Part shown: piece by piece, positions 28,642 to 29,555 of the stretch
Numbering within the stretch: the first letter of the stretch is position 1
How the letters are laid out: each line of letters opens with the position of its first letter
Source of the DNA: Escherichia phage Jgk1
Reading direction: 5' to 3' (one strand)
Length of the DNA: 64,000 nt
Sequence record: PV292302.1
Notes under the pieces: generated by a model
What the model was told of the DNA's origin: nothing
The model's input: only the letters and a program-made list of their open reading frames with translations
Database searches by the model: none
Translations under genes and position numbers: made by a program

Positions 28642-29058
28642 ATGGAACTCGAACAACAGATTAAAGAAGCTGGTGCTGATAAAGCTCCACGTATTACCCC
28701 TAACCACATCAAGAGTAAAGTACTTGGTACTTACTTCTTTACTGGCCTGGATGGTGCAGCATCAGTGTTGCCTGATTTGGCAACCATTAAGAACCAGGAA
28801 GTACAGTCACTGTCCTTGCTGACATTCTGTGTACTGGTTCTGGAGAACGGTTTCACTGTTACTGGCGAGTCTGCCTGTGCATCCCCAGAAAACTTCAACG
28901 AAGAAATTGGACGTAAGATTGCCTACGAAAATGCAATCGATAAAGTCTGGTTACTTGAAGGCTACCTCCTTAAGCAAAACCTGCATGAGAAAACTCAGAG
29001 CCGGGAAATGCTCAAGGGTTTCTTGGATGAAGGTGACTGTGCAGGGTGCAAACTCTAA
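28642..29058 (+). CDS. N4 gp49 / Sf6 gp66-family-like protein (putative)
   Basis: pattern ...LTFCVLVLENGFTVTGESACASPENFNEEIGRKIAYENAIDKVWLLEGY... recalled as typical of that family; position just upstream of the vRNAP gene region. Confidence 0.45.
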   Translation: MELEQQIKEAGADKAPRITPNHIKSKVLGTYFFTGLDGAASVLPDLATIKNQEVQSLSLLTFCVLVLENGFTVTGESACASPENFNEEIGRKIAYENAIDKVWLLEGYLLKQNLHEKTQSREMLKGFLDEGDCAGCKL

Positions 29059-29555
29059 TGGAAACTAAAATTCATTTCACCAACTACATTGGAACCAAGT
29101 GTGTAAATGGTTTCCCAATGAACAAGGTTGACTACTGCATACTTCGTGGTTGGGATGTACCTGCTACCGAAGACCCATTAGAAGAAGGTTACTTAGTAGA
29201 GTACCCGGATTCTAAACCTAACCATGAGCAATTCCGTGGTTACATTAGCTGGTCACCCAAGGCTGCATTCGAAGAAGCATACCGTGACGTAGTAAGCGGT
29301 TGTACTTTTGGTCATGCAGTGGAGCTTCTTAAGAAAGGATTCAAAGTAGCCCGTAAAGGCTGGAACGGTAAGGGTATGTATATCTCTTACGTTGCTGCCG
29401 AAGAATGGGCAAGTAGTGAACTGGAACGTCCCTGGTCAAAAGACCTCAAGCCCATCCCTTGGATTGGTATGAAGACTGTAGACGATACATATGTTCCGTG
29501 GTTAGCTTCTCAGTCAGATATTCTGGCAGTAGATTGGGTATTAGCAGAGAGCTAG
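29046..29555 (+). CDS. DUF2829-domain protein (Tad2-like candidate anti-Thoeris) with N-terminal extension
   Basis: C-terminal half carries [26 protein letters not shown] and ...[15 protein letters not shown]..., matching DUF2829 hallmarks from memory; about 80 aa precede the domain. Confidence 0.5.
   Translation: [169 protein letters not shown]

Follow-up and report, generated by a model that had tools for sequence, protein, structure and literature searches.

Escherichia phage Jgk1 (sequence record PV292302.1) encodes a two-domain protein of 165 amino acids (aa), the ortholog of gp49 of phage N4, in which an N-terminal 'sponge-associated' domain (hereafter the N-domain) precedes a Tad2-like sponge domain. 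The window analysed is a stretch of 64,000 nucleotides; the gene occupies 29058..29555 on the plus strand, including the stop codon, with the N-domain at aa 8-78 (29079..29291) and the Tad2-like domain (PF11195/DUF2829) at aa 83-162 (29304..29543). We give a probability of roughly 75% to a reading, argued by analogy with characterised sponges, in which the protein acts as a tetrameric sponge of the Tad2 type that takes up an ADP-ribose (ADPR) signal of TIR origin, the N-domain adding at least dimerisation by strand swapping. The window comes from an N4-like podophage of the Schitoviridae, near the E. coli Enquatrovirinae; its structural genes share approximately 78-79% nucleotide identity with E. 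coli phages, among them G17, PhAPEC5, and F22, and the phage as a whole shares only about 78-80% with known relatives. The exact 165-aa protein is absent from the contig index searched.

The C-terminal domain is confirmed as a member of the Tad2 family. Pfam PF11195 (formerly DUF2829) matches aa 83-162 with an E-value of 2.4e-23 and 82.9 bits (cut-off 25) over profile positions 2-72 of 73, and sequence matches in the PDB include ModTad2 (E=1.3e-17), HgmTad2/AcrIIA7, SptTad2, and SPO1 Tad2. The full-length protein was modelled as a monomer using AlphaFold2 (mean predicted local distance difference test score, pLDDT, 87.8), and all 24 Foldseek matches of this model in the PDB at E<=1e-3 are Tad2 entries (8v3e, 9eib, 8smf/g, 8wje, 8kbi-k, and 8wjd), with target-normalised template modelling (TM) scores of 0.61-0.88. 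The Tad2 fold predicted in the model (alpha1, a five-strand sheet, and alpha3) superposes on the solved structures. A preliminary description, made from the sequence alone, had placed a DUF2829 domain here on the strength of hallmark motifs; those motifs are found in the protein, and the domain is borne out by profile, sequence, fold, and pocket residues alike.

Two motifs mark the pocket, GWNGKGM at aa 101-107 and WLASQSD at aa 148-154. Contacts of HgmTad2 with gcADPR are made by W21, N22, G23, M76, A78, T82, V84, W87, L88, S90, T92, and D93 (bioRxiv 10.1101/2023.11.15.567273), and in a HMMER alignment these map, in order, to W102, N103, G104, M138, T140, T144, V146, W148, L149, S151, S153, and D154 of the 165-aa protein, with 10 of the 12 identical and the other two conservative. 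Six of these positions (W102, N103, G104, W148, S151, and D154) show no variation in 118 full-length homologs. The pocket residues of SPO1 Tad2 are W25/N26/W73/S76/T78/D79.

By analogy with solved Tad2 proteins, the domain would assemble into a homotetramer, with the GWNG loop and WLASQSD helix forming pockets between protomers. Alarm molecules that TIR enzymes make from ADP-ribose would be bound and sequestered in these pockets. The most likely ligand would be 1''-3' gcADPR (3'cADPR) of type I Thoeris, whose sequestration would keep the Thoeris effector from ever being switched on. The pocket-helix sequence WLASQSD is the form found in the gcADPR binders HgmTad2 and SptTad2, whereas ModTad2 has WTPSVSD, and we infer that specificity leans towards gcADPR. 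Three points weigh against this reading. Ligand specificity within Tad2 is unreadable from sequence, and the solved relative with the best score, ModTad2, is a His-ADPR binder that leaves type I Thoeris unblocked; the region aa 111-165 is just 42% identical to N4 gp49, so specificity may differ between close phages; and no experiment on the 165-aa protein or on N4 gp49 was found in the literature searched.

It is conceivable, though rather unlikely, that the Tad2 domain is specific for a different signal, namely His-ADPR (type II Thoeris) or N7-cADPR (type IV), or that it takes cyclic dinucleotides in addition. The ModTad2 alignment (66.8 bits; His-ADPR binder, PDB 9eib) runs through the insertion between strands beta2 and beta3, Tad2 branches active on type II and type IV Thoeris have been reported in the literature, and two pocket-motif alleles coexist in close homologs, WLASQ[ST]D in approximately 90 and W[VI]PSQSD in 26, including N4. 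The shared WLASQSD form speaks for gcADPR instead, and the cyclic-dinucleotide contacts of HgmTad2 are absent. In HgmTad2 the site for cGG and cGAMP comprises R31, L36, S47, F70, and N85 in a long beta2-beta5 insertion; here F70 is replaced by P132, N85 falls in a gap, and R31 and S47 lie in an unalignable region. HMMER splits the match to HgmTad2, whose insertion region does not align, and the residues of a HgmTad2-type dual sponge are not conserved, so that a dual Thoeris/CBASS sponge is unsupported.

The variable insertion between Tad2 strands beta2 and beta3 (aa 111-135; 29388..29462, plus strand) stands out by pLDDT, by identity, and by a breakpoint relative to N4. It has the lowest pLDDT in the model (block mean 58) and a mean identity of 31%, against 66-74% elsewhere. 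Identity to N4 gp49 is 90% in the N-domain and 80% over aa 81-110, falling to the 42% given above over aa 111-165, which covers both the insertion and the pocket helix; the helix reads WLASQSD here vs WVPSQSD in N4 and Mimir124. The nucleotide sequence ceases to resemble N4 near 29384; a breakpoint that looks like recombination lies within the Tad2 domain, and the segment 29388-29555, which opens with the insertion, has diverged from N4 gp49. Judged from these alignments, recombination below the level of the domain seems to exchange the half of the sponge that determines specificity, and the mosaic suggests fast swapping of ligand specificity among close coliphages.

The Mimir124 ortholog is labelled an anti-CRISPR, and an AcrIIA7-like function was considered for the protein. 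Similarity to the AcrIIA7 entries 9kzr and 8kbi, together with the 'anti-CRISPR protein' labels in the Mimir124 and Huey records, would favour such a function; the labels are, however, automatic transfers derived from AcrIIA7. To our knowledge, type II-A Cas9 systems are lacking in the E. coli hosts of N4-like phages. AcrIIA7 is HgmTad2 itself, which acts as a Thoeris/CBASS sponge and for which inhibition of Cas9 could not be reproduced (bioRxiv 10.1101/2023.11.15.567273). We regard the anti-CRISPR assignment as highly improbable.

The N-domain is part of the protein as made. An open reading frame (ORF) at 29046-29555 on the plus strand, listed mechanically and used in the preliminary description, exists and opens at GTG 29046, a codon that is almost certainly unused as a start. 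The start moves to ATG 29058, which overlaps the stop codon of the upstream gene (TAATG); its product begins METKIHF, and because this N-terminus is common to more than 100 homologs, ATG 29058 is taken as the true start. PHROG 872 spans the 165-aa protein end to end (E=4.5e-64), and the two-domain architecture is therefore that of an established phage family. Megablast and RefSeq annotation identify the N4 ortholog pair as gp48 (PF13876) and gp49 (DUF2829), directly before the gp50 virion RNA polymerase (vRNAP), and synteny agrees with the assignment.

Two explanations had been offered for the roughly 80 extra N-terminal residues, an added domain and a mis-called start, and the former stands. 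That characterised Tad2 proteins are only about 90-104 aa long is the one argument for a Tad2 domain made alone from a start further downstream. Against it are the full-length PHROG 872 match, more than 117 full-length homologs, a ratio of nonsynonymous to synonymous substitution (dN/dS) of 0.06-0.18 for the N-domain vs N4 and Mimir124, and a confident fold (pLDDT 91 when the N-terminal region is modelled alone), and the N-domain recurs both in other fusions and by itself. Conservation refutes the mis-called start, to which we give virtually no weight. Nor is the extension unusual, contrary to what had been stated: N4 gp49 is normally built in this way, and the N-domain occurs very widely.

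The N-domain is beta-rich, with the predicted order beta-beta-alpha-beta-beta-alpha, and in the monomer model its strand beta1 (8-11) is hairpinned onto beta2. The family motif starts IGTK..A.PM.R..YN..RGW..P..E...DEGYLVEY.DG..N, and 33 positions are at least 75% conserved, including K14, R30, W32, E38, E48, D51, N55, Y62, S64, and S66. The dN/dS values place the domain under strong purifying selection, and its mean net charge of -3.35 makes it acidic. Neither Pfam nor NCBIfam has a model for it, and a search of its profile against PDB sequences gave no relative, the best match being a MACPF protein at E=0.42. Homology to Acb4, suspected from the motifs 'SWSPKxxFE' and 'ASPENFNEE', was ruled out by a hhalign probability of 0.2%. 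Nor is the N-domain a Sequestin: PF21825 gave no match at E<=1, and the fold is beta-rich where that of Sequestin is alpha-helical.

An exhaustive profile search with the N-domain across 1.84 billion cluster representatives returned 2,839 proteins at E<=1e-3, of which 1,346 reach E<=1e-10, and tblastn placed the domain in 124 phage genomes. Among the 124 are N4-like phages that infect many different hosts, P22/Sf6-like coliphages, Vibrio podophages, Clostridium phage CP51, a phage of Parabacteroides, and a jumbo phage of Xanthomonas; the hosts span Proteobacteria, Firmicutes, and Bacteroidota. Fusion partners and architectures were tallied for the best 150 of the 2,839 representatives. By Pfam, the partners in this set are Tad2 (50), PF21825/Sequestin (42), PF13876/Acb4 (14), and the Acb2/Tad1 hairpin (4). 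Locally built hidden Markov models (HMMs) gave the architectures N-Tad2 (52), N-Sequestin (32), N-Acb4 (7), and Acb4-N-Sequestin (5), along with several further triple fusions including Ndom-Sequestin-Tad2; 42 of the 150 have no recognised partner. The domain lies at the N-terminus in 116/150, and the recognised partners are almost exclusively families of immune-signal sponges.

Stand-alone copies of the N-domain also occur. One such gene overlaps the start of an Acb4-Sequestin gene, another precedes Sequestin and Acb2/Tad1-hairpin genes, and a third, in a T7-like genome, has no sponge nearby. In the Firmicute siphophage CP51 (1295-1965 of the stretch examined) a stand-alone 68-aa Tad2 is followed by Ndom-Acb4, and in coliphage Huey (1501-2616 of the stretch examined) Ndom-Tad2, annotated 'anti-CRISPR', is followed by Acb4. 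The N-domain, Tad2, and Acb4 modules thus reassort across phyla. Separately, a 354-aa Ndom-Tad2 protein carries HNH_3 and AP2 domains between its two modules; a homing endonuclease has probably entered the gene by insertion or become fused to it. The N-domain is joined as well to unannotated C-terminal modules (the 'DPDYAWGWHCNIAMAAFDAGCPH' family, the 'FNPSG' family, and a WDGH domain), which by association are candidates for further sponge families.

A role for the N-domain is suggested by RyR Tad, the gcADPR sponge gp68 of Pectobacterium phage vB_PatP_CB1. In the RyR Tad crystal the N-terminal part, gp68_N, is strand-swapped, which aids dimerisation, and gp68_N (aa 1-86) expressed alone had no activity against type I Thoeris (bioRxiv 10.64898/2026.06.04.730250). 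No solved homolog of the N-domain came from the PDB copy searched, which does not include this crystal structure. The N-domain aligns with gp68 residues 1-86 over 69 columns (hhalign 96.5%, E=7.5e-10), and a Foldseek match of the N-domain to the RyR-domain protein of Yersinia phage TG1 (YenMTG1_208), cited as similar in the gp68 note of the CB1 record, is consistent with homology between the N-domain and gp68_N. The N-domain is a separate and ancient module. By analogy with gp68, its most likely role is to link sponge protomers to one another through a strand-swapped dimer, and it may also bind something of its own.

Pure dimerisation fits several observations poorly: the partners of the N-domain already self-oligomerise, many of its 33 conserved positions are polar or aromatic, and it also exists as a stand-alone gene. 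The N-domain could instead be an anti-defence module with its own target, either a new sponge family or a domain that binds a host immune protein, a proposal we regard as tentative and rather unlikely. The signal might then be, for example, His-ADPR, N7-cADPR, a CBASS, Pycsar, or cOA nucleotide, or the signal of a guard system, and the 165-aa protein would join two sponges, as do Acb4-Tad2 and Sequestin-Tad2. The company the domain keeps favours this: nearly all recognised partners in the set of 150 are sponge families, with RyR Tad one more; the triple fusions Acb4-Ndom-Sequestin and Ndom-Sequestin-Tad2 join it to two sponges at once; stand-alone copies adjoin sponge genes in two genomes; and its reassortment with Tad2 and Acb4 extends to phages as distant as CP51. 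The same signature, guilt by fusion, led to the discovery of Sequestin. The 33 conserved positions count on this side too, and the N-domain is more conserved than the adjoining Tad2 domain, with 90% vs 55% identity to N4.

Counting against a target of its own, gp68_N alone is inactive on type I Thoeris. This negative covers that one system only, and gp68_N is a divergent member without the family-invariant R30, W32, E48, and N55, so the result says little about the family in general. The N-domain is acidic, whereas most sponge pockets are positively charged (bioRxiv 10.1101/2025.07.12.664507). N4 carries the N-domain yet still triggers Panoptes, which it does through Acb4 (bioRxiv 10.64898/2026.06.04.730250), and the domain is therefore not a general anti-guard factor. 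We retain the strand-swapped dimer as the preferred role.

The gene immediately upstream (28642..29058, plus strand) encodes a 138-aa protein of the Acb4 family (PF13876), the ortholog of N4 gp48, identified by Pfam, PDB entry 9e4w, and the annotation of N4. It matches PF13876 (Phage_gp49_66) with E=2.9e-30 and 105 bits (cut-off 27), and its beta-core matches the SPO1 Acb4 structure 9e4w with E=6.6e-5. Both Pfam families expected in the preliminary description, DUF2829 in one gene and PF13876 in the other, were accordingly recovered above cut-off. The placement of the upstream gene in the N4 gp49 / Sf6 gp66 family holds at the level of the family; the name 'N4 gp49' does not, as RefSeq numbers the PF13876 gene of N4 gp48 and its DUF2829 gene gp49. 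PF13876 is the Acb4 family of cGAMP sponges, which are anti-CBASS proteins (bioRxiv 10.1101/2024.12.30.630793). Because of the TAATG overlap of stop and start codons, the Ndom-Tad2 gene appears to be translationally coupled to the Acb4 gene.

N4-like phages have a described hotspot between the primase and vRNAP genes that holds Tad2, Tad3, Acb4, Sequestin, Bes1, and Bes2, and whose definition also includes SSB (bioRxiv 10.64898/2026.06.04.730250). The Acb4 and Ndom-Tad2 genes of Jgk1 sit in this anti-signalling hotspot. Its left boundary is the N4 gp43-like DNA primase gene (20342..22498, plus strand; PriCT_1 match and synteny with N4, CB1, and Ab09), and its right boundary is the N4 gp50-like vRNAP gene (29817..40160, minus strand; 3447 aa, assigned from its ORF and the annotation of matching records). 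Between them, the ORF at 24146..24706 (plus strand) encodes a 186-aa ortholog of Bes1, the RuvC-like 'broad evasion of signalling 1' protein, corresponding to N4 gp46; it is 42% identical to Ab09 gp60 (E=1e-46), has no Pfam or NCBIfam match, and confirms the hotspot context. Bes1 was recently shown to evade both Thoeris and CBASS. With the coupled Acb4 gene and a Bes1 ortholog in the hotspot, it is therefore likely that Acb4 (a cGAMP sponge), Bes1, and Tad2 would together let the phage blunt both Thoeris and CBASS. The ORF at 24708-25214 has no similarity to Ab09 Bes2. Ab09 gp59, an Acb4-Sequestin protein, was considered as a hidden carrier of the N-domain and ruled out, being too short at 147 aa.

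The Acb4 and Ndom-Tad2 genes are the middle two of a four-gene cassette on the plus strand, which opens with a 134-aa ORF without a family match (28236..28640) and closes with a 75-aa ORF (29557..29784; PHROG 29107). A GC-rich hairpin with a T-run lies just upstream (28200..28229, plus strand), and a bidirectional terminator-like hairpin (29788..29811, both strands), overlain by weak terminator-type Rfam matches, separates the cassette from the convergent vRNAP gene; the two hairpins delimit the four-gene unit. Sharing a cassette with Acb4 and Ndom-Tad2, the 134-aa and 75-aa ORFs are candidate anti-defence genes. Elsewhere in the hotspot, an 85-aa ORF (25844-26101, plus strand) matches DUF7740 (E=1e-15), and five tRNA genes (Tyr, Asn, Pro, Gln, and Ile) lie at 26290-26785. 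The approximately 1.4 kb that follow (26800-28200) hold no convincing ORFs, show patchy 80-99% matches to the tRNA regions of other N4-like phages and of unrelated enterobacterial phages, and include a sub-threshold permuted-tmRNA match at 26831-26956; this region may contain degenerate or undetected tRNA-like genes. An Rfam scan of 25800-29900 found only tRNAs and sub-threshold terminator-like matches.

The Tad2 gene, the Acb4 gene, and the locus are all of already-known kinds, and the Tad2 assignment adds little beyond one more sponge in a described hotspot. The main value lies in the N-domain, which is unnamed, widespread, present in the model phage N4, fused to almost all known families of signal sponges, and noted only in passing in one preprint. 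Should it prove to have a ligand or to bind a host protein, a new anti-defence family would have been found; should it only dimerise, it would show how phages build multivalent sponge assemblies. There is perhaps a minority chance that the N-domain represents an unnamed, widespread anti-defence family of at least 2,839 clusters, whether a new sponge or an inhibitor, aimed at a target of its own, and in that case it would serve as bait for further sponge families among its approximately 40 unannotated partners.

The C-terminal half of the protein shares sequence family, fold, GWNG loop, and W-L-A-S-Q-S/T-D helix with the characterised Tad2 proteins (SPO1 gp34.65, HgmTad2/AcrIIA7, SptTad2, and ModTad2), but those are single-domain proteins of 88-104 aa, whereas here an 80-aa N-terminal domain is added. 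Relative to HgmTad2, the beta2-beta3 insertion is of another type and lacks the residues of the cyclic-dinucleotide site; relative to ModTad2, the PDB score is the highest, yet the pocket helix differs. N4 gp49 (YP_950527; PHROG 872) has the same two domains and the same position after gp48/Acb4 and before the convergent vRNAP gene, but differs in the C-terminal part of its Tad2 domain and in its pocket motif. In RyR Tad, likewise encoded in this hotspot by an N4-like phage, a homologous N-domain precedes a sponge domain for gcADPR, although that sponge domain has an all-helical RyR Repeat12-like fold and not that of Tad2.

Fusions of Tad2 with Acb4 are frequent, and it was through its fusion to both that Sequestin came to light (bioRxiv 10.1101/2025.07.12.664507). 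The sponge-sponge fusions Acb4-Tad2 of Pasteurella phage Pm86, Acb4-Sequestin of Ab09 gp59, and Sequestin-Tad2 show the same modularity in the same neighbourhoods, but in the Jgk1 protein one of the two modules, the N-domain, has no demonstrated ligand. Like Sequestin (PF21825), the N-domain is a short phage domain that occurs alone or fused to Tad2 and Acb4, the difference being the alpha-helical fold of Sequestin. Lockin is a hexameric beta 'cog' reported to be absent from INPHARED, whereas the N-domain is present in N4 and in 124 phage records.

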